Shown one piece after another: positions 3,762 through 32,000 of a stretch of DNA of 32,000 nt; position 1 is the stretch's first letter; each line of letters begins with the position of its first letter. Source of the DNA: Mycobacterium sp. (GTDB lineage: Bacteria > Actinomycetota > Actinomycetes > Mycobacteriales > Mycobacteriaceae); contig OZ257262.1 of assembly GCA_965279745.1 (NCBI GenBank), forward strand, positions 329,201-361,200. The letters are read 5' to 3'. A program made the position numbers and the translations under genes. The notes beneath the pieces are model-generated. The model saw nothing but the letters and a program-made list of their open reading frames with translations, searched no databases and had not been told where the DNA came from.

Positions 3762-3798
3762 GCGAGAGCGAAGAGGTCACATTGAGACGGAGCCGCGC

Positions 3799-6202: not shown

Positions 6203-6272
6203 GATCCCATTTGGTGGGTTCGCTCCAGTGCATGAGAACAGCGCATGGGAACATTGGTGCCGCGTCACGCAG

Positions 6273-6356: not shown

Positions 6357-7712
6357 TGTATGACGTCGGTTGATGCTTGACGTTTCGTCTTCGGGTGATG
6401 CCTGACAGTGTTTCGGCTGATGCTTGACAGTTACTTCGGTTGATTCTTGACACTCCCTTAATGAGGGAGATCAGCGTGGCTGAGCAGAGGTATCAGGCGG
6501 TGTTGGCCGTCATCAGTGATGGGTTGTCGATTTCGCAGGTGGCGAGCAAGGTCGGGGTGTCTCGGCAGACCGTGCATGCCTGGTTGGCCCGGTATGAGGC
6601 TGAGGGTCTGGAAGGGCTGAACGATCGGTCGCATCGGCCAGCGAACTGTCCGCATCAGATGCCCGCCGAGGTGGAGGCCGCGGTCTTGGAGTTGCGCCGG
6701 TCACGCCCGTATTGGGGGCCGCGGCGGCTGGTGTTCGAACTGGCTAAACGCAAGGTGCGACCAGTGCCGTCGGAATCGGCGGTGTATCGGGCATTGGTAC
6801 GAGCCGCCATGATCGATCCGACCTTGCGTGATCGGCGATCCCGTAAGTGGAAACGTTGGGAACGCGGTTCAGCGATGGAGTTGTGGCAGATGGACGTCGT
6901 CGGCGGGTTCCCGCTCGCTGATGGCACCAGCGCCAAAGCGCTGACCGGGATTGATGATCACTCCCGGATGTGCGTGTGCGCCCGGTTAATGAGCGCCGAA
7001 CGCACCCGGGCGGTGTGCGACGGACTGCGCGAGGCGTTGGCTACCTATGGGGCTCCCGAGCAGATCTTGACCGACAACGGAAAGGTGTTTACAGGCCGGT
7101 TCAACCATCCGCCTGTAGAGGTGCTCTTTGATGCGATCTGCCGCGAGCAGGGGATCGAGCATCTGTTGACTCAGCCGCGCAGTCCGACCACGACGGGAAA
7201 GATCGAACGATTTCACCGCAGTCTGCGCGCCGAGTTCCTCAGCGAACAAACAGCTTTCCGCAATCTGAAGACAGCTCAGCAGGCACTCGACGAGTGGGTG
7301 GAGTATTACAACACTGCCCGGCCGCACCAGTCGCTGAGATGGACACTCCCGCTCAACGGTTCACCGCCGGCGGTCCTCCCCAGCGTTCATCGACTCCAAC
7401 TGCGATCTCTACCGACCGCACGGGCGAACACTGGGTCAGCCGCAAGGTCTGCGCCAACGGCATCGTCTGTGTGTCCTGGCAACAGGTTTCAGTCGGGGTT
7501 CACCGGGCCGGAGCTCGCTGCGATGTCCACGTCGATGGTGAGCTGTTGCGTTTCTGGATCGGCGAGGAACTAGTCAAGACCGCCACGCGGACCAGCCACG
7601 GCGAGGTAAGAAATAAACGGGCCGCCCGCACCCGCGAGCAGGCCTAACACAACACAAAGAGTGTCAAGGATCAACCGACGCTGAAACGTCAAGAATCAAC
7701 CGACTCTGAACA
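6357..7712 (+). mobile_element. IS481-family insertion sequence, 1356 bp
   Basis: The ends have the TGT...ACA form. IRL is TGTATGACGTCGGTTGATGCTTGACGTTTC. The reverse complement of IRR is TGTTCAGAGTCGGTTGATTCTTGACGTTTC, and the core GTCGGTTGATnCTTGACGTTTC matches at 21 of 22 positions. It carries a single DDE transposase gene and is flanked by a 16-bp direct repeat. Confidence 0.8.
6461..7647 (+). pseudogene. IS481-family DDE transposase, interrupted by a 1-nt frameshift near 7336-7338
   Basis: Frame A (6440/6461..7573) carries the HTH region (SISQVASKVGVSRQTVHAWLARY) and the integrase core (WQMDVV..DDHSR..LTDNGKVF..TTGKIERFH..YYNTARPHQSL), then turns into nonsense. Frame B (..7647) continues with the expected family C-terminus MDTPAQRF..EHWVSRKVCANGIVCVSWQQVSVGVHRAGARCDVHVDGELLRFWIGEELVKTATRTSHGEVRNKRA. 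There is no slippery heptamer at the junction (tcgctgagatgg). Confidence 0.8.
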
Positions 7713-10532: not shown

Positions 10533-11777
<1,245 letters not shown>

Positions 11778-11915: not shown

Positions 11916-12146
11916 TCATTTTCTCTCGGTGATTTTGACGGCCGTTGAGGCCGAGACTTCACGCAATCGTTCCGCGTGGGTCGGTGTGACCGCGCACGCA
12001 TATTCAGCCTGAAATCGCCGGTCCAAAGCCTGGTGTCCGAAAGACGGCAGTGCCGCTTCAAGGGCCATAGCCGCAGCGTGCCCGCGATGGGTTGTCGAAA
12101 CCAATTGGTTGGCGACACGCGGGTCATGACCCCGATGTGGCGGTTT
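11916..12146 (-). pseudogene. Possible C-terminal remnant of a tyrosine recombinase/integrase (5'-truncated)
   Basis: The minus-strand translation ..THRGHAAAMALEAALPSFGHQALDRRFQAEYACAVTPTHAERL loosely matches the integrase C-terminal pattern (H-x-x-R-H-t-a-A-t-l-a-l-e-a-G ... L-G-H ... Y-s-H-V-t-p). It is degenerate, and this is a motif-level impression only. Confidence 0.3.
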
Positions 12147-12245
12147 GGTTGCTGGCTGGTAGGTTTCCGGGTGGTTTGTTGTGTGGTGTGTGGAATGGGC
12201 TGTGTGGGTGTCTTCAGACATCTGCGTGGTTGTGTTTCTAAAACG

Positions 12246-12274
12246 CTGACACTTGTGGTGTTGGTGTGCATAAT
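12246..12274 (+). promoter_or_regulatory. Near-consensus sigma-A promoter of giant gene copy 1
   Basis: cTGACA (12246-12251), a 17-nt spacer, then cATAAT (12269-12274). The predicted 5' UTR of about 36 nt ends in the strong SD AAGGGGGAG, 5 nt before ATG 12318. Confidence 0.55.
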
Positions 12275-12317
12275 GGGCCGAACCGTGCTGAGAAAGTCCT
12301 GAGAAGGGGGAGTTGTC

Positions 12318-15300
12318 ATGAGTGTTGTTTCTGGTGTTGAGGGTGGTTCGGATTTTGTTGGTTCGGCCAGTTCAGTGCGGGTTGGGCGGGGTGTGGTGGT
12401 GCGTGCTGTGGGGGTTGGTGTGCGTGGTGGGTTGAGGTCTGTGGTGTCGGGTCCTGGGGGTTATGTGGGTCGGGTGGGTGCGTTGGCGGTGGCGTTGGGG
12501 GTGGGTGCTGCGGTGGCGGTGATGCCGGCGGTGGCGTTTGCTGATACGACGGGTTCGGGGGGGGCGTCGGCGTCGGATTCGGGGTCGTCGGGTTCGGTGA
12601 AGGGTGCGCCGGGTCATCGTTCGGGTGGTGCGGGGTCGCGGTCGGGGTCGTCTGCGGGTGGTTCGTCTGCTGGTGGTGTGGGGTCTGAGGGTGTTGTTGA
12701 GGGTGGGGTGTCGGGTTCGTCGGGTGTTGGTGGTGAGTCGGAGGGGTCTTCGGTTGGTGCGGGGTCGGGGGCGGGGTCTGTGTCGGGTGGGGTGAAGTCT
12801 GGTCGTCGGTCGGGGTTGGGTTCGGGTGGTTCGGGTTCGGGTGGTTCGGGGTTTGAGGGTGTGGCGCCGGCGGGTGCGGTGGCGGGTGCGTCGCCGGTGG
12901 TGGTGGGTTCGTCGGGTGTGGGTGGGGTGTCTGTTGTGGTGCCGGAGGTGGGTGTGCCGGTGGTGGATGAGGGTGTGGTGGTTTCGGGTTCTGATGATGT
13001 TGTGGTGGCGCCGGTGTTGTCGGTGGCGCCGCCGGTGGCGGCGGTGCCGTCGGGTGCGGTGTCGGGGTTGGGTGGTGGGTTGTTGTCGTGGCTTGGGTTT
13101 GGTGGTGGGGCTGCGGGTGGTTCGGATGGTTCGGGTGTGGGTGGGCCGTTGGGGTGGGCGTTGTTGGGGTTTGTGCGTCGTGATGGGTCGCGTGGTGGGC
13201 GTGATGTGGCGCCGCCGGCGGCGGGGGTGTCGTCGGGTGAGTCGTCGGGTGGGTTGTGGTCGGGTGCGGGTGCTGCGGTGTCGGGTGTGGGGAGTGTTCC
13301 GTCGGCGGCGTCGGTGGGGTCGTCGGTGGGTGCGGGGGCGAGTGATATTTGGTTGTTTGGGAATGGGACTGCTGAGCATCCTGATGGCGGGATTTTGATT
13401 GGTAATGGGTATTCGTGGACGGGGTATGCGGGGGTGTGCACCAGTGGTGCGTGCAATGGTGGTAATGGTGGGTTGATTGGTTCGGGTGGTGCTGGGTTTG
13501 CGGGTGGTAATGGTGGTTCGGCGGGGTGGTTTGGTTCGGGTGGTGCTGGTGGTGCTGGGACTAATGGTGTTTCTGGTGGTGCTGGTGGTAAGGGTGGTAC
13601 GGGTGGGTTGTTTATTGGTAATGGTGGTAATGGTGGTGCTGGTGGTGCTGCGAGTGCTGGTAATGGTGGTGCGGGTGGTGCTGGTGGGGATACGGGTCTG
13701 ATTTCGTGGGGTGCTGCGGGTAATGGTGGTGCTGGTGGTGTGGGTAGTGGTGGTTTTGTGGGTGGTGTTGGTGGTGCGGGTGGTTCTGCTGGGCTGATTT
13801 CGACGATTAGTTCTGGTGGTGTGGGTGGTGCTGGTGGTGCTGGTGGTACGGGTGGTGCTGGTGGTGCTGGTGGTAATGGTGGTTTGGTGGTTGGTGGTGG
13901 TGGTGCTGGTGGTACGGGTGGGGCGACCACGTTGATTGGTGGTGTGGGTGGTGATGGTGGTGATGGTGGTTCTACGGGGTTGTTGTCGGTGTCGGGTGAT
14001 GGTGGTGCGGGTGGTGCGGGTGGTGCGGGTGGTGCGGGTTTGGCGGGTGTGACGGGGACGTCGCCGGGTGGTGCGGGTGGTGTGGGTACTGCTGGTGGTA
14101 AGGGCGGTGCTGGTGGTGATGGTGGTGCTGGCAGCTTTGTGTTTGGTGCTGGTGGTGCTGGTGGTGCTGGTGGTGCTGGTGGTGTTGGTGGTGTTGGTGG
14201 TACGGGTGCTGCGGGTGCTGGTGCGACGGCTGCGGGTGCTGCTGGTGGTGTTGGTGGTGCTGGTGGTACGGGTGGTGCTGGTGGTGTTGGTGGTGTGGGT
14301 GGTAATGGTGGTGATGGGCGGATTCTGTTCTTTGTTGATTCGTCGGGTGCGGCGGGTGTGGGTGGTAAGGGTGGTTCCGGCGGTGGTGCGGGTGTTGCCG
14401 GTGATGGTGGTGTTGGTGGTGCGGGTAATGCGGGCACGCCTGATGGTGGTGCGGGTGGTGCTGGTGGTAATCCGGGTAAGGCCGGTGTGGGTGGTGCCGG
14501 TGGTGCGGGTGGTTCGGGTAATGGTGGTGGTGGTGCTGGTGCTTCGGGTGCTGCGGGTTCGGCGGCGACCTCGGGGGGTAATGGCGGTAATGGTGGGGCT
14601 GGGTTCAGTGCTGTGGTGGCGGGTGCTGGCGGTAATGGTGGTGCTGGCGGTGCTGGTGGCGCGGTGGGTAATGGCGGTAATGGTGGTGCGGCGGGTGCGG
14701 GTGCTGGGGGTACGGCGGGCACTTCTGGTGTGACGGGCACTGATGGTGGTTCTGGTTTCGCTGGTGGTGTGGGTGGTGCTGGTGGTGCTGGTGGTAGCAC
14801 GTCGGGTAATGGTGGTAATGGTGGTGCGGGTGGTGCCGGTGGTGCTGGTGGTGCGGGTGGTAGTGGTTCTGATGGTGCTGCCGGGGTGGGTTCGGGTGCT
14901 TCGGGTAGTGATGGTGGTGATGGTGGTTCTGGTGGTAAGGGCGGTAAGGGTGGTGCCGGCGGTAACGCGGGTAAGGCGTTGGGGGCTGGTTCGGCTGGGG
15001 TGAATGGCACTGGTGGTGCTGGTGGTACGGGTGGTAGTGCGGGTAATGCGGGTAATGGTGGTACGGGTGCGGCGGGGACGAACATCATCACTCCTGATGG
15101 TGGTGCTGGTGGTAATGGTGGTGAGTTGGGTACTGCGGGTACTGGTGGTGCTGGTGGTGCGGCGGGTACTGGTGGTTCTGGTGGTGCGACCGGTAGTGAT
15201 GGCGGTAATGGCGGGTCGGGTTCTGGTGGTAATGGTGGTGCGGGTGGTGCCGGCTGGAATTCCACGGTGACCAATGTGGCTGGCGGTAATGGTGGTGCGG

Positions 15301-16967
15301 GTGGTAACGCGGGCACGGTCGGTAATGGTGGTGCTGGTGGTGCGGGTGGTAACGGGTCGACCGGGACTGCTGGTGGTGCTGGTGGTGCGGGTGTTGGTGG
15401 CGGTAATGGTGGTGCGGGGTCCACCGCGGGTAATGGTGGTGCTGGTGGTGCTGGTGGCACGTTGGTGGGTAATGGTGGTGCTGGTGGTGTTGGTGGTGTT
15501 GGTGGTGCGGGTGGTAATGGTGGTGCTGGTGGTGATGGTGCTACTGGTGGTGCTGGTGTGGCTGGTGGTACTGGTGGTGATGGTGGTACCGGGGGTAGTG
15601 GTGCTAAGGGTGGCCAGGGCGGTGCGGGTGGTGCTGCGGGTGGTAAGGGCAGTGTCGGACAGAACGGTAATGGTGGTGCTGGTGGCGCCGGGGGTGATGC
15701 GGGTAACGCCGGCAATGGCGGTAATGGTGGTGCCGGGACTGCGTTGAACCCGGATGGTGGTGCTGGTGGTAATGGCGGCAATGTCGGGTTCGCTGGTACT
15801 GGTGGTGCTGGTGGTGCGGCGGGTAGTGGTGGCACTGGTGGGGTGAGTGGGGTTACCGGTGGTGATGGTGGTTCTGCTGGTGGCGGTAATGGCGGTAATG
15901 GTGGTGCGGGGTGGAACAGCCTTACTGCGTCGAAGGCTGGCGGTAAGGGTGGTGCTGGTGGTGCTGGTGGTTTCGTCGGTAATGGTGGTGTTGGTGGTTC
16001 TGGCGGTAACGGTGCGAGTGGTCAGGCCGGTGTTGATGGTGGTGTCGGGGTTGATGGGACCAGTGGTGGTAATGCCAGCGCTGGTGGTGCCGGTGGTGCG
16101 GGCGGTGCTGGTGGGGCGATAGCGGGTTCTGGTGGTGCTGGTGGTTCTGGCGGTAATGGTGGTTCTGGTGGTGCGGGCGGTAATGGTGGTAACGGTGCTG
16201 CTGGTGGTGCTGGTTTGGCTGGTGGGACTGGTGGTAATGGCGGTACGGGTGGTAACGGTGCTGCTGGTGGTGCTGGTGGTGCTGGTGGTAAGGCGGTCGG
16301 TATTGGTTCTGCCGGTAGTGATGGCAGTGGTGGTGCGGGTGGCACGGGTGGTAATGCCGGTAATGCCGGTAATGGTGGTACCGGTGGTGCGGGTGTGTCG
16401 TCGGTGACTCCGAATGGTGGTGCTGGTGGTAATGGTGGTGAGCGTGGCGCGGCGGGTGCTGGCGCTGCCGGTGGTGCCGCGGGTGGTCCTGGTGGTACGA
16501 CGGGTGCTAGTGGTGTTGGTGGTGCTGCGGCGTCGGGTGGCAATGGTGGTAATGGTGGTGCTGGCTGGAACAGCAATGATCCGTCGAAGGCTGGCGGTAA
16601 GGGTGGTGCTGGTGGTAACGCGGGTTCGGTCGGTGATGGTGGTGCTGGTGGTGCCGGCGGTAATGGTGCTTCGGGTGCGGTAGGGGCTAATGCCGGTCCG
16701 GGTGGCAATGGTGGTCTTGGTGGTGCGGGCAGTGTTGGTGGTGCCGGTGGTGCTGGCGGTAACGGCGGGTCGTCGAAGGGTGACGGCGGTGCTGGTGGTG
16801 TCGGTGGTGTGGGTGGTGCCGGCGGTAACGGCGGTAACGGCGGTAACGGCGCTACCGGGGTTGGTGGTGGTGCGTCGGTGGTGATGGCGGTAATGGTGGC
16901 ACTGGTGGTGCTGGTGCTGCTGGTGGTAAGGGCGGCACGCACGGGTTCGCGCTCGGTGGTGGTGTGA
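12318..16967 (+). CDS. Giant secreted PGRS-like glycine-rich repeat protein, 5' segment (ORF ends artificially because of a 1-nt deletion at 16876)
   Basis: Supported by the promoter, the SD and ATG 12318. The signal peptide is ..[25 protein letters not shown]|D (cleavage after residue 75). It is followed by a Ser/Gly/Val-rich linker of about 260 aa, then the PGRS-type onset [43 protein letters not shown] and GGAGGxGG repeats. The last 31 residues (..[17 protein letters not shown]..) are out-of-frame read-through. Confidence 0.8.
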
Positions 16968-19900
16968 ATGGTGCTGATGGCAATGGTGGTACTGGTGGCA
17001 CGGGTGGTAATGCTGGTGATGCCGGTAATGGTGGTGCTGGTGCTGGTGGTACTTCGGGTTCGCCGGATGGTGGTACCGGTGGTGATGGTGGTGATCGGGG
17101 TACTGCCGGTGTTGGTGGTGCCGGGGGTGCTGCTGGAGGGACTGCGGGTTCTGCCGGTGTGACAGGCGCTGATGGTTCTGGGGCGTCGGGTGGTAATGGT
17201 GGTGCTGGTGGTGCCGGTTGGACCAGCACGAGTGGTGCTACCGCTGGTGGTAATGGTGGTGCTGGTGGTAACGCGGGTACCTATGGCAATGGTGGTGCTG
17301 GCGGTGCTGGTGGTACTGGTGCTGGGGGTACTGCGGGGATTGCGGGGGCGACTGCTGCTGCCGGTGGTGCCGGTAATAACGGCGGCACGGGTGGTAATGG
17401 CAGTGCTGGTGGTGCTGGTGGTGCTGGTGGTAAGGGCGGTTCGGTCGCCGGTAATGGTGGTGCTGGTGGTGTTGGTGGTGCCGGTGGCTCGGGTGGTACC
17501 GGTGGCGCCGGGTCTGATGGTGGGCTCGGGGTGATCACGATCAACGCTGGTGCTGGTGGTAACGGTGGTACGGGTGGTACTGGTGGTGCTGGTGCTTCTG
17601 GTGGTGCTGGTGGTGCTGGTGGTGCTGCGGGTGGTGTTGGTTCCTCGGGTGCGGATGCTGATGGTGGTGCTGGTGGTTCCGGTGGTAATGCCGGTAATGC
17701 CGGTAATGGTGGTACGGGTGCTCAGGGTGATTTGAACTTGGGTCCTGCTAATGGTGGTGCTGGCGGTAATGGTGGTACGTGGGGCACTGCGGGTGCTGGT
17801 GCTGCTGGCGGTGCCGCGGGTGGGGCGGGTGCTAGCGCGGGGTCGAGTGGTTCTTCGGGTACGGCGGCTACTGCTGGTGGTAACGGTGGTGATGGTGGTG
17901 CCGGCTGGAACAGCACGAACCCGGCGTTCGGTGGCGGTAATGGTGGTGCCGGCGGTAATGCCGGTTCGTTGGGTACTGGTGGTAATGGTGGTACTGGTGG
18001 TCAAGGGTTCACTGGTGTTACCGGTGCGGTAGGGGCCACTGGTGGTGGTGCTGGTGGTAACGGTGGTACCGGTACCGCGGGTGGTAACGGTGGTGCTGGC
18101 GGTAATGGTGGTGTGTTCGGTGGTAACGCCGGTAATGGTGGTAATGCCGGTAATGGTGGTACCGGTGGTGCTGGCGGTAATGGTGGTACCGGTGCTTCCG
18201 GTGGTGCTGGTGGTACTGCCGGTAATGGTGGTAGTGGTGGCGCCGGGGGCAGTGGTGGTGCTGGTGGTAAGGCGTTGGTGGCTGGGTTCACCCATGGCAA
18301 TGGCGGTAATGGTGCTACCGGTGGTACTGGGGGTAACGCCGGTAATGGTGGTACTGGTGGTGGTGGTACTGCGGGCACACCTAATGGTGGTGATGGTGGT
18401 GCTGGTGGTACGCGTGGTGGTGCTGGTGCTTCGGGTGCTGGTGGTGCCGCGGGTGGTACGGGTGCGTCGGCGGGGTCGGCGGGGACCTCGGGTGCCGCGG
18501 GGACCACTGGCGGTAATGGTGGTGCTGGTGGTGCGGGCTGGAACAGCGACTCGAGTAGCGCTGCTGGTGGTGCCGGCGGTAAGGGTGGTGCCGCGGGTGC
18601 TATCGGTGATGGTGGTGCTGGTGGTGCTGGTGGTAATGGTTTTGCTGGTGCTGCTGGTGGTAACGGCTCTACTGGCGGGTACGGGGTTTCTGGTGGAGAC
18701 GCCACGTCTAATGGTGGTTGGGGCACTGCTGGTGGTGCTGGTGGTGCTGGTGGTACGGGCGGGACGACCTCGGGTAAGGGTGGTTCCGGTGGTGCTGGTG
18801 GTGTTGGTGGTGTTGGTGGTACCGGCGGTAACGGCGGTAACGGTGGTACCGGGACGACCGCGGGCAGTGGTTCCGGCGGTAATGGTGGTACCGGCAGTGC
18901 TGGTGGTACCGGTGGTACCGGTGGTGCTGGGGGTGCTGCGGGTAAGGCTGGCGGCACGGGTGGTACGACCGGTGCTAATGGCAGTGGCGGTAATGGTGGT
19001 ACTGGTGGTGCTGCGGGTAACGCCGGTAATGGTGGTGCTGGTGCTGGCGGGACGGCGGGCACACCGAATGGTGGCGATGGTGGTGAGGGCGGTAACCGTG
19101 GTGCCGCCGGTAATGGTGGTACCGGGGGCTTGGCTGGTGGCACGACCGGCGGTGCGGCGGCGGGGACCACGGGGAGCACTGGTGGTGTCGGGGCGTTGGG
19201 TGCCGGCGGTAATGGTGGTTCTGGTGGTGACGGCTTTGATGGGTCGGGTACCACGGGCGCTAACGGCGGTAATGGCGGTAAGGGTGGTGCGGCTGGTTCG
19301 TTCGGTAATGGTGGTGCCGGTGGTAAGGGCGGTAATGGTGGCGGGGGGACCGCGGGGACTGCGGGGACCACGGGCAGCACTGATGGCGTTACTGGTCAGG
19401 CTGGTGGTGTTGGTGGTGCTGGTGGTGCTGGTGGTAGGGGCGGTTTGGTCCAGGGTGATGGTGGTGCCGGCGGTAAGGGCGGTAACGGTGCTACCGGTGG
19501 TACCGGTGGTGACGGCCATGATGGTGCGGCCGGGGTTACCGGGGTAAATAACGGTGTTGGTGGTGCTGGTGGTACTGGCGGTAATGGTGGTGCTGGTGGT
19601 GCCGGTGGTAAGGGTGGTAAGGGTGGTACGGCGGCGTCGGGTACTACCGGTGCTAATGGCAGTGGCGGTAACGGTGCTACTGGTGGTAACGCGGGTAACG
19701 CCGGTAACGGTGGGGCCGGTGCTACCGGGACGGTGGCTAACCCGAATGGCGGTAATGGTGGTACCGGCGGTACTCGGGGTACTGCTGGTGGTGCTGGTGC
19801 TGCTGGTGCTTCGGGGACCACTCCGGGTGGCGCGTCGGGGTCGACCGGGACTGCCGGGACTACTGGTGCTGGGGCCACGTTCGGTGGTAACGGCGGTAAT

Positions 19901-20000
19901 GGTGGTAACGGCTACAACGACCTGACCACCGGTGCCAGCGCCGGTAACGGCGGTAACGGTGGTAACGCCGGGTTGATCGGTAACGGCGGTAATGGTGGTA
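14600..20000 (+). repeat. Array of at least 8 higher-order modules of about 630-700 bp (about 220 aa) inside the giant gene
   Basis: An anchor motif GG(N/D)GG(A/N)G(W/F/Y)(N/T/D)S recurs near 14603, 15255, 15912, 16566, 17219, 17906, 18539, 19236 and 19914. Each is preceded by [10 protein letters not shown]..(T/N)P(D/N)GGxGGxGGxxGxAG and followed by ..[26 protein letters not shown]. Confidence 0.75.
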
Positions 20001-22975
20001 ACGGTGGCGCGGCGGATGCCCAGACCGGTACCAGCACCGGGGTGATCAGGACTGGCGGTAATGGTGGTGCTGGTGGTGCTGGTGGTGCCACGTCGGGTAA
20101 CGGTGGTGCCGGTGGTGCTGGTGGCAACGCGCATACCCGCGATTCGGGTTCGCGGGCGATCGGTGGTGCTGGCGGTGCTGGTGGCGCGTCGATCGGGGCC
20201 ACGGGCTCGAGCAGTGCCGCGGGTAATGGTGGTGCCGGTGGTAACGGGAACTCTGAACAGGATCACGGCTTCGGTGGTACCGGTGGTGCTGGCGGGTCGG
20301 TGGCGTTCGCTGACGGTAATGGCGGTAATGGTGGTGCCGGTGGTGGTGCTACGGGTGCCGGTATTGCTGCTGGTGGTGCTGGTGGTGCTGGTGGTGCTGT
20401 CGGTTCTGGTGTCGGTAACGGCGGTAATGGTGGTGCTGGTGGTGGCGCCTCTGGTGACACGTTCGTCAGCTCGACCGGTGGTGCTGGTGGTGCCGGTGGT
20501 ACCGGCGGTGCTGGTGGTGGTGATGGTGGTGCTGGCGCGGTCGGTGGTGACGCGACCTCGGTCAATACCATTGCTACCGGTGGTGCTGGTGGTAAGGGCG
20601 GATTCGCGGCGGGCACGGTCGGTAACGGTGGTGCTGGTGGTGCCGGTGGTAGCGGTGCGGCCGGGGCCTCTGGTGATACCGCCACGGGCGGTCAGGGTGG
20701 TGCCGGTGGTGGCGCGTCTGCCGGTAACGGTGGTGCTGGTGGTGCCGGTGGCGGCGCCTCAGTCGGCGCGACGGGCTTCGCTGCCTTTGGTGGTGCCGGC
20801 GGTGCCGGTGGTGCTGGTGGCGGTGTCGGTAACGGTGGTGCCGGCGGTAAGGGCGGCAACGCACAAGGCATCGGATTCGTTGGAACCTTCGATGCGCAGG
20901 CCGGTGTCGGTGGTATCGGTGGGGCCGCGGGGGTGACCGGTACCGGTGGCCAGGGCGGCGACGGCGGTGACGCCGTGTCCACAGGCACCGGCATCGTCAA
21001 CACCGGCGCTGTTGGTGGTAACGCCGGTAAGGGCGGCACCGGCGGATCCACCAGTGGCAACGGCGGCGCCGGCGGCAAGGGCGGCGCAGCCACCGCGGCG
21101 GATAGCTTCGCCAAGGGCGGTGCGGCCGGTAATGGTGGTAACGCTGTCAACGCCGGCAACGGTGGTGTCGGCGGTCGCGGCGGCGACGCCACGATGACAG
21201 GCGCCGGTTCCACGGCTAACGGTGGTGTTGGTGGTCAAGGTGGTGCGGCGGGCAGCCTCAGCGGTAACGGCGGTGCTGGTGGCCGCGGCGGCGACGCGTC
21301 CGCGACCGGGGCAGGTTCGACCGCCACCGGTGGTGCCGGTGGTACTGGTGCTAACGCCGCCGTCGAAGGTGCCGGTGCTGGTGGCGCCGGCGGTGACGCC
21401 ACCTCAGCGGTCGGCAATGCTCGCGGTGGTGTTGGTGGTAAGGGTGGTGACGGTGCGCTCGGCACCGCAGGTACCACCGGCGGAGTCGGGGGTGCGGGCA
21501 CGACCGGTGCGGCTGGTGGGGCTGGTGGCAGCGCTACCGCAGGCGGCACGGGTAGCGCAATCGGCGGTATCGGCGGCACCGGCGGTGCCGGTGGTGGCGG
21601 TGGGCTCGGCGGCAATGGCAGTGCCGGGACCACCGGTGCTGCAGGCAATACCGCTGGCGCTGGTGGCACCGCTGGTAACGGTGGTAGCGGTGGTGCCGGT
21701 GGAGTTGCAACCACCAGCGGTACCGGGACCGCGGTCGGCGGCAAGGGTGGGCTCGCCGGTGCCGGTGGTACAGGCGGTAAAGGCGGAGTCGGCGGCACCG
21801 GCGGAACCGGGGGTGCCACAGGCGGTGCGGGCGGTGCTGGTGGTGTCGGCGGCAACGCCGGCATCGGTGGTGCCGGTGGCGCCGCAGTCGCTACCGGCGT
21901 CGGAACAATAGCTATCGGCGGAGAAGGCGGCGGTGCTGGCGCGCAAGGCGCCGGTGGCGTTGGTGGTACCGGTGGTGTTGGTGGTACCGGGGCCGCGCTG
22001 GGCGCCGGGGGCAAGGGCGGCAAGGGCGGCGCCGGCGGTAACAACGGCAACGGAGGTGTTGGTGGTGTTGGTGGCACCGGGACCTCTAGCGACGGCAATG
22101 CGATCGGTGGTACTGGCGGCAATATCGCCGTTGCTTCGGTTGCTGCTGCGGCGGGTGGCAAGGGTGGTGCTGGTGGCGCCACCGGTGCCGGTGGCGTGAC
22201 CGGCGGCAACGGCGGCGACGGGGGCAACGGCGGCAAGGCCGGTACAGGTTTTGTCGGTGGGACCGGCGGCAGCGCCTTCTCTAGCGGAACAAACGCTTCT
22301 GCGGTCGGCGGCGTCGGTGGGTCGACCATCAGTTCGACTACGGGTGGAGCAGGTGGTGCTGGAGGTGCGGCCGCGGGTGGTGGTGGAACCACCGGCGCGA
22401 CGGGCGGCACCGGTAGTGCCGGTATCGGTGGTGCTGGCGGCAACGGCGGTAACGCGACCTCCACCAACGGAGCCGCCTTGGGCGGTAACGGCAACATTGG
22501 AGGCGATGCTGGCAGCGGTACTGGTGGTGTTGCGGGGACGGCTGGTAATGGCGGTAGCGCCACGGCCGGCGGAACCAATGCCGGAGCCACTGGTGGGAAG
22601 GGCGGCGTCGGCGGCTCAGGCGCTCCTGCTAACGCGTTCGGTGCTCAGGGTGGCATTGGTGGCAGTGCGACTTCCACCAATGGATTCGCTGTGGGCGGTA
22701 CCGGTGGTCGCGGTGGCGATACATCCAGTGTGATCGGGGGTACCGGTGGTAAGGGCGGCGACGCCGTGGCTGGCGGAACCAACTCTCCGGCCACCGGTGG
22801 TGCCGGCGGTGCCGGCGGCAACGCCACCGTGGCTGGCGGTACGGGCGGTAACGGCGGTAACGGCGGCGACGCCTCGTCGGCCGCCGGAATCCCGACCGGC
22901 GGCAACGGCGGCGGCGGCGGCACTGGTATCGCCCCCGGGGTCAACGGCACCCCAGGCACCCACGGCAACCCCTAA
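16964..22975 (+). CDS. 3' segment of the same giant glycine-rich gene (a continuation, not an independent gene)
   Basis: The GTG at 16964 is an internal Val codon in copy 2, where the frame runs straight through (..[42 protein letters not shown]..). There is no RBS. The same repeat architecture continues. The C-terminal part of about 900 aa switches to GGxGGxGGDA/S-type repeats. The stop at 22973-22975 is followed by a strong hairpin. Confidence 0.8.
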
Positions 22976-23009
22976 GCACGGGGTAGTCGATACGCACAAC
23001 TGACAACGA

Positions 23010-23050
23010 CGGCGGGGATCCGCTCCTTTCACAGGAGAGGACCCCCGCCG
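23010..23050 (+). terminator. Intrinsic terminator-like hairpin downstream of giant gene copy 1
   Basis: In CGGCGGGGATCCgCTCCTttcacAGGAGagGGACCCCCGCCG the outer arms match at 11 of 12 positions, and there is an inner 5-bp stem. It is followed by ctgttgtg and begins 35 nt after the stop codon. Confidence 0.55.
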
Positions 23051-23140
23051 CTGTTGTGCGCTTGACGCGGTGCAGTGCGAGTTGGGTGAGGTTTGTGGTG
23101 CTGCGATAGGTCAGAGGTCGATCTTCCGTAGGACCGTCGT

Positions 23141-23590: not shown

Positions 23591-24201
23591 CCACTTTTGA
23601 CCTGTCCCGGCTTCCCGGACGGCTGGTGTTGGGTGTTCACGCGGCCGTGTTGGTGGTCGTGTGGTGTCTTTCGTAGTCGATAGGGCTGCAGTAGTCCAGA
23701 GCGCTGTGACGGCGGACGGGTTCGATCTGCAGGGAGCCAAAGAACGATTCGATCATCGCGTTGTCAAAGGCGGAGGCCACCTGGCCCATAGAAGCCAGGA
23801 GGCCTGCCTCGCGGAGCCGGTGGCCGAACAGCCAACTGGTACTGGGTTCCGCGGTCGGAGTGCACGATCGTGCCGACGGGTTTGCGGCGTAGTCGGGCCA
23901 TGTCGAGAGCGTCGGCGAACAGTTCGGTCCGCAAGTGATCGGCGATCGACCAGCCGACCACCCGGCGGTAGACCGTAGGTCTGCCGTGAGCCGGTATGGA
24001 TCGCCACGACGGTGTTGGCTAACTCGGCGTCCACACGATCGCTGGTCCTTGGCAACCCGAGCGATCGGCTTCTCCCGCAGCCGGGCCAACTCCACCGCAC
24101 GACGGCGAAACTCCTCCGAATAAGCAGCGGTCATCGTTTCTCTGACTCCTTCCGTTGAGACGATCATCGCCTCAACCGCGGTGTCTGGGAAAGTGGGAAC
24201 A
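23586..24201 (-). mobile_element. Internally deleted IS3-family element (616 bp) that retains both terminal inverted repeats
   Basis: The termini TGTTCCCACTTT (23586-23597) and AAAGTGGGAACA (24190-24201) form a perfect 12-bp inverted repeat. The [10 protein letters not shown] and ATG 24134 open the orfA N-terminus MTAAYSEEFRRRAVELARLREKPIARVAKD. It is then fused, through deletions and frame changes, to OrfB pieces RVDAELANTVVAIHTGSRQTYG, VVGWSIADHLRTELFADALDMA..VGTIVHSDRGTQY and ..MGQVASAFDNAMIESFFGSLQIE..RRHSALDYCSPIDYE. No flanking target duplication is seen. Confidence 0.65.
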
Positions 24202-24480
24202 GGGGTCGCCCGCCTCAATGCCGCCCACAACGCCGGGCGCCTGCCGGCCGAACTGGTCACGCTGCGTCGCGTCGGATCGCTAGTCGGGACGAGGTCGGCT
24301 ACATCCCGTTCAAGCAGGACGCCGCGAACCGGGGGCAGACCCTTGCCCTCGGCCAGAGCAGACAACACCGCACAATAATCCACGACCACGTGCCCACTTT
24401 TCACCGTCGCTTCCGGGCCTAGGTTTCGACCATCGTCAACAGGGCCGCGCGGTCTACCGTCATCTACTCGTGCAGCAGAC
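24202..24480 (+). pseudogene. IS21-family IstB-like ATPase fragment (C-terminal part, frameshifted)
   Basis: The plus-strand translation ARLNAAHNAGRLPAELVTLRR.. then, after a -1 shift, ..DEVGYIPFKQDAAN matches the IstB pattern (L..L..A...G.L...L..L.. LLIIDE.GY.P.....A). Downstream it is degenerate. It begins exactly at the IS3-remnant boundary. Confidence 0.4.
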
Positions 24481-24684
24481 ACACTCCAGTCGTCGTTTGT
24501 GGTTGAGATTTTGAGAGTCGACCTGGGACGGAGTGGTCGGTGGAGGATTCGTTGGCGTGGTTGGGTGGGTCCTCGTGTGCCTGTTGGGTTGCTGGCTGGT
24601 AGGTTTCCGGGTGGTTTGTTGTGTGGTGTGTGGAATGGGCTGTGTGGGTGTCTTCAGACATCTGCGTGGTGGCGATTCGACACG

Positions 24685-24713
24685 CTGACACTTGTGGTGT
24701 TGGTGTGCATAAT
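24685..24713 (+). promoter_or_regulatory. Promoter of giant gene copy 2 (same -35/-10 as copy 1)
   Basis: cTGACA 24685-24690, a 17-nt spacer, then cATAAT 24708-24713. The SD and ATG 24757 are the same as in copy 1. The sequence immediately upstream of -35 differs from copy 1. Confidence 0.5.
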
Positions 24714-24756: not shown

Positions 24757-27700
24757 ATGAGTGTTGTTTCTGGTGTTGAGGGTGGTTCGGATTTTGTTGG
24801 TTCGGCCAGTTCAGTGCGGGTTGGGCGGGGTGTGGTGGTGCGTGCTGTGGGGGTTGGTGTGCGTGGTGGGTTGAGGTCTGTGGTGTCGGGTCCTGGGGGT
24901 TATGTGGGTCGGGTGGGTGCGTTGGCGGTGGCGTTGGGGGTGGGTGCTGCGGTGGCGGTGATGCCGGCGGTGGCGTTTGCTGATACGACGGGTTCGGGGG
25001 GGGGCGTCGGCGTCGGATTCGGGGTCGTCGGGTTCGGTGAAGGGTGCGCCGGGTCATCGTTCGGGTGGTGCGGGGTCGCGGTCGGGGTCGTCTGCGGGTG
25101 GTTCGTCTGCTGGTGGTGTGGGGTCTGAGGGTGTTGTTGAGGGTGGGGTGTCGGGTTCGTCGGGTGTTGGTGGTGAGTCGGAGGGGTCTTCGGTTGGTGC
25201 GGGGTCGGGGGCGGGGTCTGTGTCGGGTGGGGTGAAGTCTGGTCGTCGGTCGGGGTTGGGTTCGGGTGGTTCGGGTTCGGGTGGTTCGGGGTTTGAGGGT
25301 GTGGCGCCGGCGGGTGCGGTGGCGGGTGCGTCGCCGGTGGTGGTGGGTTCGTCGGGTGTGGGTGGGGTGTCTGTTGTGGTGCCGGAGGTGGGTGTGCCGG
25401 TGGTGGATGAGGGTGTGGTGGTTTCGGGTTCTGATGATGTTGTGGTGGCGCCGGTGTTGTCGGTGGCGCCGCCGGTGGCGGCGGTGCCGTCGGGTGCGGT
25501 GTCGGGGTTGGGTGGTGGGTTGTTGTCGTGGCTTGGGTTTGGTGGTGGGGCTGCGGGTGGTTCGGATGGTTCGGGTGTGGGTGGGCCGTTGGGGTGGGCG
25601 TTGTTGGGGTTTGTGCGTCGTGATGGGTCGCGTGGTGGGCGTGATGTGGCGCCGCCGGCGGCGGGGGTGTCGTCGGGTGAGTCGTCGGGTGGGTTGTGGT
25701 CGGGTGCGGGTGCTGCGGTGTCGGGTGTGGGGAGTGTTCCGTCGGCGGCGTCGGTGGGGTCGTCGGTGGGTGCGGGGGCGAGTGATATTTGGTTGTTTGG
25801 GAATGGGACTGCTGAGCATCCTGATGGCGGGATTTTGATTGGTAATGGGTATTCGTGGACGGGGTATGCGGGGGTGTGCACCAGTGGTGCGTGCAATGGT
25901 GGTAATGGTGGGTTGATTGGTTCGGGTGGTGCTGGGTTTGCGGGTGGTAATGGTGGTTCGGCGGGGTGGTTTGGTTCGGGTGGTGCTGGTGGTGCTGGGA
26001 CTAATGGTGTTTCTGGTGGTGCTGGTGGTAAGGGTGGTACGGGTGGGTTGTTTATTGGTAATGGTGGTAATGGTGGTGCTGGTGGTGCTGCGAGTGCTGG
26101 TAATGGTGGTGCGGGTGGTGCTGGTGGGGATACGGGTCTGATTTCGTGGGGTGCTGCGGGTAATGGTGGTGCTGGTGGTGTGGGTAGTGGTGGTTTTGTG
26201 GGTGGTGTTGGTGGTGCGGGTGGTTCTGCTGGGCTGATTTCGACGATTAGTTCTGGTGGTGTGGGTGGTGCTGGTGGTGCTGGTGGTACGGGTGGTGCTG
26301 GTGGTGCTGGTGGTAATGGTGGTTTGGTGGTTGGTGGTGGTGGTGCTGGTGGTACGGGTGGGGCGACCACGTTGATTGGTGGTGTGGGTGGTGATGGTGG
26401 TGATGGTGGTTCTACGGGGTTGTTGTCGGTGTCGGGTGATGGTGGTGCGGGTGGTGCGGGTGGTGCGGGTGGTGCGGGTTTGGCGGGTGTGACGGGGACG
26501 TCGCCGGGTGGTGCGGGTGGTGTGGGTACTGCTGGTGGTAAGGGCGGTGCTGGTGGTGATGGTGGTGCTGGCAGCTTTGTGTTTGGTGCTGGTGGTGCTG
26601 GTGGTGCTGGTGGTGCTGGTGGTGTTGGTGGTGTTGGTGGTACGGGTGCTGCGGGTGCTGGTGCGACGGCTGCGGGTGCTGCTGGTGGTGTTGGTGGTGC
26701 TGGTGGTACGGGTGGTGCTGGTGGTGTTGGTGGTGTGGGTGGTAATGGTGGTGATGGGCGGATTCTGTTCTTTGTTGATTCGTCGGGTGCGGCGGGTGTG
26801 GGTGGTAAGGGTGGTTCCGGCGGTGGTGCGGGTGTTGCCGGTGATGGTGGTGTTGGTGGTGCGGGTAATGCGGGCACGCCTGATGGTGGTGCGGGTGGTG
26901 CTGGTGGTAATCCGGGTAAGGCCGGTGTGGGTGGTGCCGGTGGTGCGGGTGGTTCGGGTAATGGTGGTGGTGGTGCTGGTGCTTCGGGTGCTGCGGGTTC
27001 GGCGGCGACCTCGGGGGGTAATGGCGGTAATGGTGGGGCTGGGTTCAGTGCTGTGGTGGCGGGTGCTGGCGGTAATGGTGGTGCTGGCGGTGCTGGTGGC
27101 GCGGTGGGTAATGGCGGTAATGGTGGTGCGGCGGGTGCGGGTGCTGGGGGTACGGCGGGCACTTCTGGTGTGACGGGCACTGATGGTGGTTCTGGTTTCG
27201 CTGGTGGTGTGGGTGGTGCTGGTGGTGCTGGTGGTAGCACGTCGGGTAATGGTGGTAATGGTGGTGCGGGTGGTGCCGGTGGTGCTGGTGGTGCGGGTGG
27301 TAGTGGTTCTGATGGTGCTGCCGGGGTGGGTTCGGGTGCTTCGGGTAGTGATGGTGGTGATGGTGGTTCTGGTGGTAAGGGCGGTAAGGGTGGTGCCGGC
27401 GGTAACGCGGGTAAGGCGTTGGGGGCTGGTTCGGCTGGGGTGAATGGCACTGGTGGTGCTGGTGGTACGGGTGGTAGTGCGGGTAATGCGGGTAATGGTG
27501 GTACGGGTGCGGCGGGGACGAACATCATCACTCCTGATGGTGGTGCTGGTGGTAATGGTGGTGAGTTGGGTACTGCGGGTACTGGTGGTGCTGGTGGTGC
27601 GGCGGGTACTGGTGGTTCTGGTGGTGCGACCGGTAGTGATGGCGGTAATGGCGGGTCGGGTTCTGGTGGTAATGGTGGTGCGGGTGGTGCCGGCTGGAAT

Positions 27701-30700
27701 TCCACGGTGACCAATGTGGCTGGCGGTAATGGTGGTGCGGGTGGTAACGCGGGCACGGTCGGTAATGGTGGTGCTGGTGGTGCGGGTGGTAACGGGTCGA
27801 CCGGGACTGCTGGTGGTGCTGGTGGTGCGGGTGTTGGTGGCGGTAATGGTGGTGCGGGGTCCACCGCGGGTAATGGTGGTGCTGGTGGTGCTGGTGGCAC
27901 GTTGGTGGGTAATGGTGGTGCTGGTGGTGTTGGTGGTGTTGGTGGTGCGGGTGGTAATGGTGGTGCTGGTGGTGATGGTGCTACTGGTGGTGCTGGTGTG
28001 GCTGGTGGTACTGGTGGTGATGGTGGTACCGGGGGTAGTGGTGCTAAGGGTGGCCAGGGCGGTGCGGGTGGTGCTGCGGGTGGTAAGGGCAGTGTCGGAC
28101 AGAACGGTAATGGTGGTGCTGGTGGCGCCGGGGGTGATGCGGGTAACGCCGGCAATGGCGGTAATGGTGGTGCCGGGACTGCGTTGAACCCGGATGGTGG
28201 TGCTGGTGGTAATGGCGGCAATGTCGGGTTCGCTGGTACTGGTGGTGCTGGTGGTGCGGCGGGTAGTGGTGGCACTGGTGGGGTGAGTGGGGTTACCGGT
28301 GGTGATGGTGGTTCTGCTGGTGGCGGTAATGGCGGTAATGGTGGTGCGGGGTGGAACAGCCTTACTGCGTCGAAGGCTGGCGGTAAGGGTGGTGCTGGTG
28401 GTGCTGGTGGTTTCGTCGGTAATGGTGGTGTTGGTGGTTCTGGCGGTAACGGTGCGAGTGGTCAGGCCGGTGTTGATGGTGGTGTCGGGGTTGATGGGAC
28501 CAGTGGTGGTAATGCCAGCGCTGGTGGTGCCGGTGGTGCGGGCGGTGCTGGTGGGGCGATAGCGGGTTCTGGTGGTGCTGGTGGTTCTGGCGGTAATGGT
28601 GGTTCTGGTGGTGCGGGCGGTAATGGTGGTAACGGTGCTGCTGGTGGTGCTGGTTTGGCTGGTGGGACTGGTGGTAATGGCGGTACGGGTGGTAACGGTG
28701 CTGCTGGTGGTGCTGGTGGTGCTGGTGGTAAGGCGGTCGGTATTGGTTCTGCCGGTAGTGATGGCAGTGGTGGTGCGGGTGGCACGGGTGGTAATGCCGG
28801 TAATGCCGGTAATGGTGGTACCGGTGGTGCGGGTGTGTCGTCGGTGACTCCGAATGGTGGTGCTGGTGGTAATGGTGGTGAGCGTGGCGCGGCGGGTGCT
28901 GGCGCTGCCGGTGGTGCCGCGGGTGGTCCTGGTGGTACGACGGGTGCTAGTGGTGTTGGTGGTGCTGCGGCGTCGGGTGGCAATGGTGGTAATGGTGGTG
29001 CTGGCTGGAACAGCAATGATCCGTCGAAGGCTGGCGGTAAGGGTGGTGCTGGTGGTAACGCGGGTTCGGTCGGTGATGGTGGTGCTGGTGGTGCCGGCGG
29101 TAATGGTGCTTCGGGTGCGGTAGGGGCTAATGCCGGTCCGGGTGGCAATGGTGGTCTTGGTGGTGCGGGCAGTGTTGGTGGTGCCGGTGGTGCTGGCGGT
29201 AACGGCGGGTCGTCGAAGGGTGACGGCGGTGCTGGTGGTGTCGGTGGTGTGGGTGGTGCCGGCGGTAACGGCGGTAACGGCGGTAACGGCGCTACCGGGG
29301 TTGGTGGTGGTGCGTCCGGTGGTGATGGCGGTAATGGTGGCACTGGTGGTGCTGGTGCTGCTGGTGGTAAGGGCGGCACGCACGGGTTCGCGCTCGGTGG
29401 TGGTGTGAATGGTGCTGATGGCAATGGTGGTACTGGTGGCACGGGTGGTAATGCTGGTGATGCCGGTAATGGTGGTGCTGGTGCTGGTGGTACTTCGGGT
29501 TCGCCGGATGGTGGTACCGGTGGTGATGGTGGTGATCGGGGTACTGCCGGTGTTGGTGGTGCCGGGGGTGCTGCTGGAGGGACTGCGGGTTCTGCCGGTG
29601 TGACAGGCGCTGATGGTTCTGGGGCGTCGGGTGGTAATGGTGGTGCTGGTGGTGCCGGTTGGACCAGCACGAGTGGTGCTACCGCTGGTGGTAATGGTGG
29701 TGCTGGTGGTAACGCGGGTACCTATGGCAATGGTGGTGCTGGCGGTGCTGGTGGTACTGGTGCTGGGGGTACTGCGGGGATTGCGGGGGCGACTGCTGCT
29801 GCCGGTGGTGCCGGTAATAACGGCGGCACGGGTGGTAATGGCAGTGCTGGTGGTGCTGGTGGTGCTGGTGGTAAGGGCGGTTCGGTCGCCGGTAATGGTG
29901 GTGCTGGTGGTGTTGGTGGTGCCGGTGGCTCGGGTGGTACCGGTGGCGCCGGGTCTGATGGTGGGCTCGGGGTGATCACGATCAACGCTGGTGCTGGTGG
30001 TAACGGTGGTACGGGTGGTACTGGTGGTGCTGGTGCTTCTGGTGGTGCTGGTGGTGCTGGTGGTGCTGCGGGTGGTGTTGGTTCCTCGGGTGCGGATGCT
30101 GATGGTGGTGCTGGTGGTTCCGGTGGTAATGCCGGTAATGCCGGTAATGGTGGTACGGGTGCTCAGGGTGATTTGAACTTGGGTCCTGCTAATGGTGGTG
30201 CTGGCGGTAATGGTGGTACGTGGGGCACTGCGGGTGCTGGTGCTGCTGGCGGTGCCGCGGGTGGGGCGGGTGCTAGCGCGGGGTCGAGTGGTTCTTCGGG
30301 TACGGCGGCTACTGCTGGTGGTAACGGTGGTGATGGTGGTGCCGGCTGGAACAGCACGAACCCGGCGTTCGGTGGCGGTAATGGTGGTGCCGGCGGTAAT
30401 GCCGGTTCGTTGGGTACTGGTGGTAATGGTGGTACTGGTGGTCAAGGGTTCACTGGTGTTACCGGTGCGGTAGGGGCCACTGGTGGTGGTGCTGGTGGTA
30501 ACGGTGGTACCGGTACCGCGGGTGGTAACGGTGGTGCTGGCGGTAATGGTGGTGTGTTCGGTGGTAACGCCGGTAATGGTGGTAATGCCGGTAATGGTGG
30601 TACCGGTGGTGCTGGCGGTAATGGTGGTACCGGTGCTTCCGGTGGTGCTGGTGGTACTGCCGGTAATGGTGGTAGTGGTGGCGCCGGGGGCAGTGGTGGT

Positions 30701-32000
30701 GCTGGTGGTAAGGCGTTGGTGGCTGGGTTCACCCATGGCAATGGCGGTAATGGTGCTACCGGTGGTACTGGGGGTAACGCCGGTAATGGTGGTACTGGTG
30801 GTGGTGGTACTGCGGGCACACCTAATGGTGGTGATGGTGGTGCTGGTGGTACGCGTGGTGGTGCTGGTGCTTCGGGTGCTGGTGGTGCCGCGGGTGGTAC
30901 GGGTGCGTCGGCGGGGTCGGCGGGGACCTCGGGTGCCGCGGGGACCACTGGCGGTAATGGTGGTGCTGGTGGTGCGGGCTGGAACAGCGACTCGAGTAGC
31001 GCTGCTGGTGGTGCCGGCGGTAAGGGTGGTGCCGCGGGTGCTATCGGTGATGGTGGTGCTGGTGGTGCTGGTGGTAATGGTTTTGCTGGTGCTGCTGGTG
31101 GTAACGGCTCTACTGGCGGGTACGGGGTTTCTGGTGGAGACGCCACGTCTAATGGTGGTTGGGGCACTGCTGGTGGTGCTGGTGGTGCTGGTGGTACGGG
31201 CGGGACGACCTCGGGTAAGGGTGGTTCCGGTGGTGCTGGTGGTGTTGGTGGTGTTGGTGGTACCGGCGGTAACGGCGGTAACGGTGGTACCGGGACGACC
31301 GCGGGCAGTGGTTCCGGCGGTAATGGTGGTACCGGCAGTGCTGGTGGTACCGGTGGTACCGGTGGTGCTGGGGGTGCTGCGGGTAAGGCTGGCGGCACGG
31401 GTGGTACGACCGGTGCTAATGGCAGTGGCGGTAATGGTGGTACTGGTGGTGCTGCGGGTAACGCCGGTAATGGTGGTGCTGGTGCTGGCGGGACGGCGGG
31501 CACACCGAATGGTGGCGATGGTGGTGAGGGCGGTAACCGTGGTGCCGCCGGTAATGGTGGTACCGGGGGCTTGGCTGGTGGCACGACCGGCGGTGCGGCG
31601 GCGGGGACCACGGGGAGCACTGGTGGTGTCGGGGCGTTGGGTGCCGGCGGTAATGGTGGTTCTGGTGGTGACGGCTTTGATGGGTCGGGTACCACGGGCG
31701 CTAACGGCGGTAATGGCGGTAAGGGTGGTGCGGCTGGTTCGTTCGGTAATGGTGGTGCCGGTGGTAAGGGCGGTAATGGTGGCGGGGGGACCGCGGGGAC
31801 TGCGGGGACCACGGGCAGCACTGATGGCGTTACTGGTCAGGCTGGTGGTGTTGGTGGTGCTGGTGGTGCTGGTGGTAGGGGCGGTTTGGTCCAGGGTGAT
31901 GGTGGTGCCGGCGGTAAGGGCGGTAACGGTGCTACCGGTGGTACCGGTGGTGACGGCCATGATGGTGCGGCCGGGGTTACCGGGGTAAATAACGGTGTTG
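24757..32000 (+). pseudogene. Second copy of the giant PGRS-like glycine-rich gene, frameshifted at a G9 tract (24996-25004) and 3'-partial at the window edge
   Basis: ATG 24757 encodes the same 82 N-terminal residues as copy 1. The extra G then gives 41 aberrant residues and a stop at 25126-25128 (ORF 24757..25128). The Gly-rich frame is open from the tract to position 32000 and matches copy 1. It includes an intact reading through 29316-29317, the site where copy 1 is broken. Confidence 0.8.

Follow-up and report, generated by a model that had tools for sequence, protein, structure and literature searches.

In Mycobacterium tuberculosis and M. marinum, neighbouring PE_PGRS paralogues such as PE_PGRS17/18 undergo gene conversion. 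The bacterial tuf genes and rRNA operons are the classical paralogues evolving in concert, and Borrelia vls cassettes and immunoglobulin switch regions are G-rich, strand-skewed recombining loci. Here we analyze a giant glycine-rich gene of a Mycobacterium sp. whose genome is a single contig of 4.36 Mb (63.6% GC). The window, that is, the whole 32,000-nt stretch of DNA that was analyzed, covers positions 329201–361200 of this contig and holds copy 1 of the gene and the beginning of a tandem copy 2; positions below are those of the window unless marked as genome positions. Synonymous codon usage changes abruptly inside copy 1, close to the point at which its identity to copy 2 ends. We consider it probable that the 8.5-kb block on the 5′ side results from very recent gene conversion, that the unconverted 741-codon tail is old and that the codon step is a recombination junction.

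A codon step within the giant gene

Copy 1 lies on the forward strand as two open reading frames (ORFs), 12318–16967 and 16964–22975, and not as the single ORF assumed in the preliminary description. The first piece encodes a signal-like N-terminus, a linker rich in G, S, V and A, a conserved N-terminal domain and the first of the ~220-aa modules, while the second piece runs to the stop codon. The split arises because one base (C) is missing at 16875 relative to copy 2. Copy 2 (24758–32000, forward strand, extending beyond the window to window-equivalent 35455) was read to its end from the whole genome and is uninterrupted at the site equivalent to 16875, forming a single frame of 3497 codons. 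It has a one-base frameshift of its own near the 5′ end, where a G run at 24996 is longer by one base.

In a sliding profile, third-position GC content (GC3) is 0.24–0.37 between 13.4 and 18.9 kb, 0.41–0.56 between 19 and 20.5 kb and 0.57–0.65 from 20.6 kb to the stop codon. Single change points were located by maximum likelihood, with 200 permutations as the null. The fraction of codons ending in T (T3; C3 and A3 are defined likewise) falls from 0.63 to 0.31 at nt 20750, with a log-likelihood ratio of 115 against a permutation maximum of 7.5, and A3 rises from 0.005 to 0.068 at nt 20759. In copy 2 the change points fall at the equivalent sites, 33191 (T3) and 33200 (A3). The glycine codons GGT/GGC/GGA/GGG number 982/147/4/96 in 13290–20749 versus 149/146/21/20 in 20750–22972 (p = 7e-53). 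Ala, Asn, Thr, Ser, Val and Asp move in the direction of Gly (p from 2e-3 to 7e-16), so that seven amino acids are affected in all. The abrupt change reported in the preliminary description is thus borne out by the GC3 profile, the change points and the amino acid counts, and its position is corrected from 20300 onward to ~20750.

The step is superimposed on a gradient, as C3 is 0.00–0.04 in the first 1.5 kb, rises gradually to ~0.3 by 20.7 kb and then jumps to 0.49. The clean contrast first drawn between a GGT-rich and a GGC-rich part therefore needs qualification: the step is real, but it rides on the C3 gradient and the 3′ part still uses GGT for 44% of its glycines. Three compartments can be delimited along the coding strand. 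In the signal and linker compartment (12318–13289), third positions are G (0.63) or T (0.37), with one C-ending and one A-ending codon among 324. The compartment of T-ending codons (13290–20749) uses GGT for 80% of Gly, rises from 0.03 to 0.32 in C3, has an A3 of 0.005 and carries GCTGGTGG 104 times on the coding strand. The C-terminal compartment (20750–22972, 741 codons) has near-genomic third positions (C3 0.49, A3 0.07, T3 0.32). As a reference, 2196 high-GC3 ORFs of the genome have a median GC3 of 0.754 and use GGT for 21% and GGC for 47% of Gly and AAT for 26% of Asn, so GGT is not the preferred glycine codon of this organism. Its ordinary long genes have C3 ~0.42, T3 ~0.14 and A3 ~0.085 and no strong gradient. 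Measured against this background the 5′ part is extremely atypical, and the 3′ part is near normal in C3 and A3, yet richer in GGT than average.

The protein repeats do not change at the codon step, as had been supposed. The last aromatic module anchor is at 19901, and from ~20.1 kb the units are already of the C-terminal type, which puts the change of repeat type near 19.9–20.3 kb, 0.5–0.8 kb upstream of the step. Between 19901 and 20749, C-terminal-type repeats are still written in GGT/GCT codons. Segments 20372–20848 and 21221–21694 are 65% identical in nucleotide sequence, so that homologous units straddle the step, spelled GGT GCT GGT GGT upstream of 20744 and GGC GCC GGC downstream. The junction cuts through a run of homologous protein repeats, not between repeat types.

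Identity tract and diverged tail

Copies 1 and 2 are free of substitutions from 12281 to 20779 (24720–33220 in copy 2). Over these 8499 nt the sole differences are two one-base indels, at 12556 versus 24996 and at 16875 versus 29316, each of which disrupts the frame of a different copy; they may be sequencing errors or real. The first substitution between the copies, at 20780, is 30 nt past the T3 change point, and the two change points and this substitution together define the junction as 20750–20780. The upstream flank of the tract is diverged too, the copies differing at 12231–12280. Past the junction, identity drops to 97%, 89%, ~80% and ~60%, and the tail as a whole shares 76% of nucleotides and 74% of amino acids with that of copy 2. 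Synonymous divergence (dS) in four successive segments of the last 741 codons is 0.16, 0.48, 0.68 and 0.79 (0.53 overall), and the ratio of nonsynonymous to synonymous divergence (dN/dS) is 0.37 overall and 0.30–0.67 by segment. Because dS is high and rising at a dN/dS of 0.37, we take the tail to be old and under purifying selection.

An identity tract with diverged paralogous flanks on both sides, and with divergence climbing with distance from its edge, is the pattern expected of gene conversion, and it is on these grounds that we favor conversion of the 5′ block. As the tract ends where the step falls (20779 versus 20750–20759), the step is best read as the 3′ edge of the conversion tract. 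The earlier suggestion of a mosaic gene, whose two parts have different histories, stands to the extent that the copies are identical over the 5′ 8.5 kb but have a dS of 0.16–0.79 over the 3′ 2.2 kb. Copy 2, thought to be beyond comparison past the window, proved to have the same step once its remainder was taken from the genome. In the mechanism we propose, gap repair would have copied the whole 5′ block in place of unlike sequence and would have been resolved in the first good homology 3′ of the block. Block transfer with such a resolution would let the end of the tract coincide with the change of codon style and identity decay gradually beyond it (97, 89, 79%). If this reading holds, an odd change of codon usage within a gene can be the scar left by recombination, and here it dates the parts of the gene very differently, with a dS of 0 in the 5′ part versus 0.5–0.8 in the tail.

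A relation between identity tracts and codon style was also seen among other paralogues, where tracts were defined by the sharing of exact 150-mers; a megablast filter at ≥98% identity gave none, as the high-scoring segment pairs ran into diverged sequence. Three paralogue pairs share exact matches of at least 150 nt, and the G+T content of shared versus remaining sequence is 0.75/0.59, 0.70/0.67 and 0.71/0.64; in each pair C is less frequent in the shared parts than elsewhere in these genes. A second, independent instance of the relation is given by the 33-kb and 27-kb paralogues, located 3.3 Mb apart: identity is 51–83% over the first 1–2 kb and 59–65% over the last 6 kb, and between these lies a 4-kb tract of 99–100% identity whose start coincides exactly with a rise in coding-strand G+T from 0.64 to 0.83. 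Across 671 windows of 300 nt, which are not independent, G+T content separates tract members from the rest with an area under the receiver operating characteristic curve of 0.83. The coincidence of identity tracts with the G+T-rich style across paralogues is suggestive only. Of the very long genes of this kind, one (genome 18748–52575, forward strand) is an unbroken frame of 11,275 codons (33.8 kb) with 64 copies of a 336-bp unit; another (genome 3355643–3382611, forward strand) is a 27-kb paralogue with ~45 copies of the 336-bp unit and is split by a frame change.

Codon style across the family and its possible causes

The genome holds ~20 glycine-rich open frames of the giant-gene kind, the longest of 11,275 codons, and both repeat types and both codon styles recur among the other paralogues. 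In all very long paralogues profiled (>1500 codons), the first 300 codons have a C3 of 0.01–0.28 (0.01–0.16 in GGT-rich members), and C3 climbs over the next few thousand codons whatever the type or length of the array; in most, the last 600–1200 codons reach C3 0.47–0.60 and A3 0.05–0.15. The skew tracks the coding strand, being reversed between paralogues that lie 27 kb apart in opposite orientation, and replication direction is therefore not its cause. Two further family members (genome 164907–172994, forward strand, and 2770967–2778904, reverse strand) encode giant, putatively secreted proteins with Ala/Val/Leu/Gly-rich 'LLGDS..LW' repeats and no glycine arrays. The family N-terminal domain is present in the first, and the second begins with a near-identical signal-like N-terminus. 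In the repeat blocks of both, C3 is 0.13–0.24 and A3 0.02–0.04, and the flanking gene parts are normal.

Beyond this genome, 96 of 200 sampled genomes of the genus encode homologues of the N-terminal domain. Further homologues come from public records labelled Mycobacterium or Mycolicibacterium, mostly environmental metagenome-assembled genomes (MAGs). These other-species homologues are mostly C3-rich, with first 300 codons that are C3-poorer in 12 of 16 loci; a few, above all in Mycobacterium sp. STL-ACT21 (the MAG with the strongest match), show a similar gradient or T3-rich blocks. When the C-terminal 741 aa were searched in relatives, the gene's own two copies and two weak matches were returned, and neither a genome-contig scan nor a search of 5.8 billion proteins gave a match; composition correction on so glycine-rich a query probably hides distant relatives. 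Matches to residues 200–1100 of copy 2 cover just 2–6% of the query. No close orthologous locus was found among 30 relatives, in which the best homologue of the neighbouring methyltransferase is 62% identical in amino acid sequence.

As to why the 5′ array is written in G- and T-ending codons, a translational cause based on tRNA supply was rejected. The genome has one tRNA-Gly gene, with a GCC anticodon, and none with an ACC anticodon, so GGT and GGC are read by the same tRNA and the force on codon style must act at the nucleotide level. GC- or AT-biased gene conversion was rejected as well, since the bias is for T over C but for G over A, a strand-specific preference for keto bases (G+T). We lean, at somewhat less than an even chance, towards a constraint on long repeat arrays, in which a strand of G and T only is unable to pair with itself. 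The predicted folding energy per 150 nt is −46 to −51 kcal/mol in the 5′ array, −54.7 in ordinary genes and −76.8 in the real C-terminal part, and the protein of the 5′ array recoded with genomic codons would fold at −72 to −75 kcal/mol. At second codon positions C makes up 34% (mostly in GCG and TCG codons) where C3 is 0.3%. We favor the self-pairing constraint because the array folds no more strongly than ordinary genes and because C is kept at position 2 and lost at position 3. Transcription-linked, strand-asymmetric mutation is a serious possibility as the source of the style, although we would not call it probable, and a comparable share is left for inheritance of the style with converted blocks or for other causes.

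Several points weigh against gene conversion of the 5′ block as the origin of the step and against self-pairing as the origin of the style. The step lies at one site in both copies, so that the donor copy must already have had it, and only the block transfer proposed above, or a fixed boundary to concerted evolution that has long been in place, accounts for the step falling at the tract end. A single assembly underlies the 100% identity, and a few true differences could have been lost when its near-identical repeats were polished. The association between tracts and G+T content is drawn from three non-independent pairs and is weak in one. Self-pairing explains neither the 5′-to-3′ gradient nor the tolerance of GGC in the tail and in most homologues of other species.

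The same gradient would follow if transcription or R-loops exposed the non-template strand to C-to-T and A-to-G changes that decay with distance from the promoter, the step being the steep end of the gradient; as an explanation of the step we find this unlikely. The rise of C3 along all very long paralogues profiled, in any array type and length, and the dependence of the skew on coding strand and not on replication direction agree with it. So do the onset of the G+T excess in non-coding DNA ~190 nt upstream of the ATG, the density of G runs, which peaks at 75 per kb in the first 1 kb, and the protein sequence of the linker, rich in Gly and Val, the residues encoded by G/T-only codons. However, a rise in A3 from 0.005 to 0.07 and a halving of T3 within ~30 nt are too sharp for decay with distance, and C remains abundant at the second positions of the very codons that lack it at the third. 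The skew is also specific to blocks: the paralogue at genome 164907 combines a normal C3 (0.52) in its N-terminal domain with a depleted one (0.21–0.24) in the array downstream. Among rare third-position variants in the 64- and 44-copy 336-bp arrays, an underpowered sample, C to T does not exceed T to C (12 events for 61 C columns and 22 for 88 T columns).

Around the start of the gene, the coding-strand G+T excess (75–80%) sets in at 12130–12240, close to where the duplicated unit begins and before a pair of promoter-like hexamers. Copy 2 has this pair, CTGACA and CATAAT with 17 nt between them, at 24685–24713; the copy-1 equivalent, as judged from the sequence, would lie at ~12245–12273. Shifted-frame and antisense ORFs of up to 1414 codons overlie the array (for example, 16022–20266 on the reverse strand). 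They have no family matches and look like by-products, as long alternative and antisense frames stay open because the coding strand is almost without A and its complement, accordingly, almost without T.

It is also conceivable, if improbable, that the G/T-ending style evolved as a spelling that promotes recombination, with the coding strand acting as a Chi-like, RecA-favored and non-self-pairing substrate of TGG repeats. By the same improbable account, blocks of this style would be exchanged among giant surface-protein genes and the step would be the edge of the recombination-active zone. Bacterial synonymous codons would then be tuned for variation driven by gene conversion, with a logic like that of vls cassettes or immunoglobulin switch regions. 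Should codon style control recombination or nucleic-acid structure, recoded arrays would test how synonymous sites shape the evolution of repeat proteins.

Horizontal acquisition of one part, or an assembly chimera at the junction, is very unlikely. The composition is atypical, an IS3 fragment lies between the copies with an IS481-like transposase upstream, and searches for the C-terminal part found no homologue outside this genome. However, it is the atypical 5′ part that bears the N-terminal domain found across the genus, the C-terminal part is near-genomic in its codons and consists of a repeat type that also makes up other paralogues in this genome (45–49% aa identity), and the step is at the same site in both copies despite different 3′ sequences and downstream flanks. 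Homologue searches found no outside donor for either part, and nothing points to a foreign origin.

Recent growth of the 5′ array from a (GGT)n-like seed, as put forward in the preliminary description, with the codon style as a founder effect and an older 3′ part, is already largely refuted and carries hardly any weight: array codons are almost all T-ending, and minor Gly codons share alignment columns across modules beyond chance (variance 2.37 versus 1.13, p < 0.0005), from which it follows that some codon choices were inherited, but identity among the seven ~220-aa modules is only 63% in amino acid sequence (74% at codon positions 1–2 and 57% at position 3), Tandem Repeats Finder (TRF) detects no high-identity repeats in the gene beyond a loose 9-nt periodicity at 61% match, the truly young 336-bp arrays elsewhere in the genome (64 and ~45 copies by TRF, 89–91% match) have a T3 of 0.43–0.46, below the 0.59–0.67 of the giant gene's old array, and the non-repetitive linker and unrelated Ala/Val/Leu-rich arrays lose C3 and A3 likewise.

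Flanking genes and comparison with known systems

Upstream of copy 1, an S-adenosylmethionine-dependent methyltransferase with CMAS-like Pfam matches is encoded at 10557–11777 on the forward strand. A 65%-identical paralogue (genome 175857–177056, reverse strand) lies downstream of the family gene at 164907–172994, and a 62%-identical homologue in another species (110153–111358, reverse strand) lies downstream of a 2960-codon family gene. A methyltransferase beside a giant repeat-protein gene in three instances may reflect a functional pairing. Farther upstream, a tRNA gene (6273–6346) is directly followed by an IS481-family transposase ORF (6440–7573). A TldD/PmbA-type metallopeptidase pair (2232–5172), adjoining a β-eliminating lyase on the opposite strand (5156–6268), consists of ordinary neighbours unrelated to the finding. 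Downstream of copy 1, an inverted repeat with 25-nt arms (23003–23057, forward strand) starts 28 nt past the stop codon and resembles a terminator hairpin without a T tract, and the spacer between the copies contains IS3-family debris (23637–24482, reverse strand).

Neither ORF piece of copy 1 matched a Pfam or NCBIfam model. AlphaFold2 applied to 500 aa across the codon step gave a mean predicted local distance difference test score of 29.5 and no secondary structure. The RTX/β-roll model (GGxGxDxUx) had no Pfam match at E ≤ 0.1. Collagen-like G-X-Y periodicity was absent, as the translation contains GG doublets, and matches to collagens in the Protein Data Bank were compositional only. The translations are 45–47% Gly with GGAGG/GGNGG units throughout, which places them among the Gly-Gly-Ala/Gly-Gly-Asn repeat proteins of PGRS type.

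With the tuf and rRNA operon paralogues the giant gene shares an identity tract that is bounded by diverged sequence, with divergence rising gradually from its edge. It differs in that the tract boundary here is a switch of synonymous style within one repeat array and that the coding strand of the converted blocks has a strong G+T skew.

A second comparison is with the TGG-repeat or GT-rich DNA preferred by RecA and with the Chi octamer, GCTGGTGG. As summarized by Kim et al. 2013 (PMC3763553, citing Tracy and Kowalczykowski 1996), Escherichia coli RecA filaments are most stable on the TGG repeat and least stable on its complement CCA. A shift of register turns GGT GGT GGT into a TGG repeat. 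The 5′ block contains 47 GGTGGT per kb versus 1.1 for the genome, and 14 GCTGGTGG per kb versus 0.17. The preference is that of E. coli RecA in vitro and may not be that of this organism, and the link to identity tracts is a correlation only. To our knowledge, no mycobacterial Chi has been defined.

Like vls cassettes and immunoglobulin switch regions, the locus presents a G-rich non-template strand in repeats that often recombine. Unlike them, it has no silent cassettes or dedicated switching machinery that we could see, and its skew resides at the synonymous third positions of an expressed-type ORF.

The closest comparison is with PE_PGRS genes. Both are mycobacterial multigene families that encode very long repeat proteins rich in Gly-Gly-Ala/Asn. 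In both, conversion between paralogues yields mosaic genes with identity tracts, and one-base indels often break the frame. In contrast to PE_PGRS proteins, the giant protein has no PE domain (PF00934) and no Pfam match at all, and the whole genome has a single weak PE match. In its place at the N-terminus are a signal that looks Sec-type (in the translation of copy 1, an apparently Sec-like hydrophobic segment ending in AFA), the linker and then the family-specific domain. With regard to type VII (ESX-5) export, a trait of PE_PGRS proteins, this Sec-like segment is the only feature seen in the translation. The giant-gene family is far larger, reaching an open frame of 11,275 codons. Its arrays are written in GGT/GCT/AAT codons (GGT makes up 80% of Gly codons in 13290–20749 and 44% in the tail) and not in the GGC/GCC codons behind the name PGRS (polymorphic GC-rich sequence), and the 5′ part is almost without third-position C and A. 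A literature search on GGT codon bias in PGRS genes returned nothing relevant, and we know of no description of silent sites in PGRS-like genes that avoid C and A less strongly from 5′ to 3′. What the locus adds is a family of giant repeat proteins, predicted to be secreted, in an environmental mycobacterium, with arrays that are nearly devoid of C and A at silent sites and an avoidance that weakens from 5′ to 3′. The giant gene is PE_PGRS-like in repeat chemistry and concerted evolution, and it departs from PE_PGRS genes in lacking both the PE domain and the GC-rich codons.

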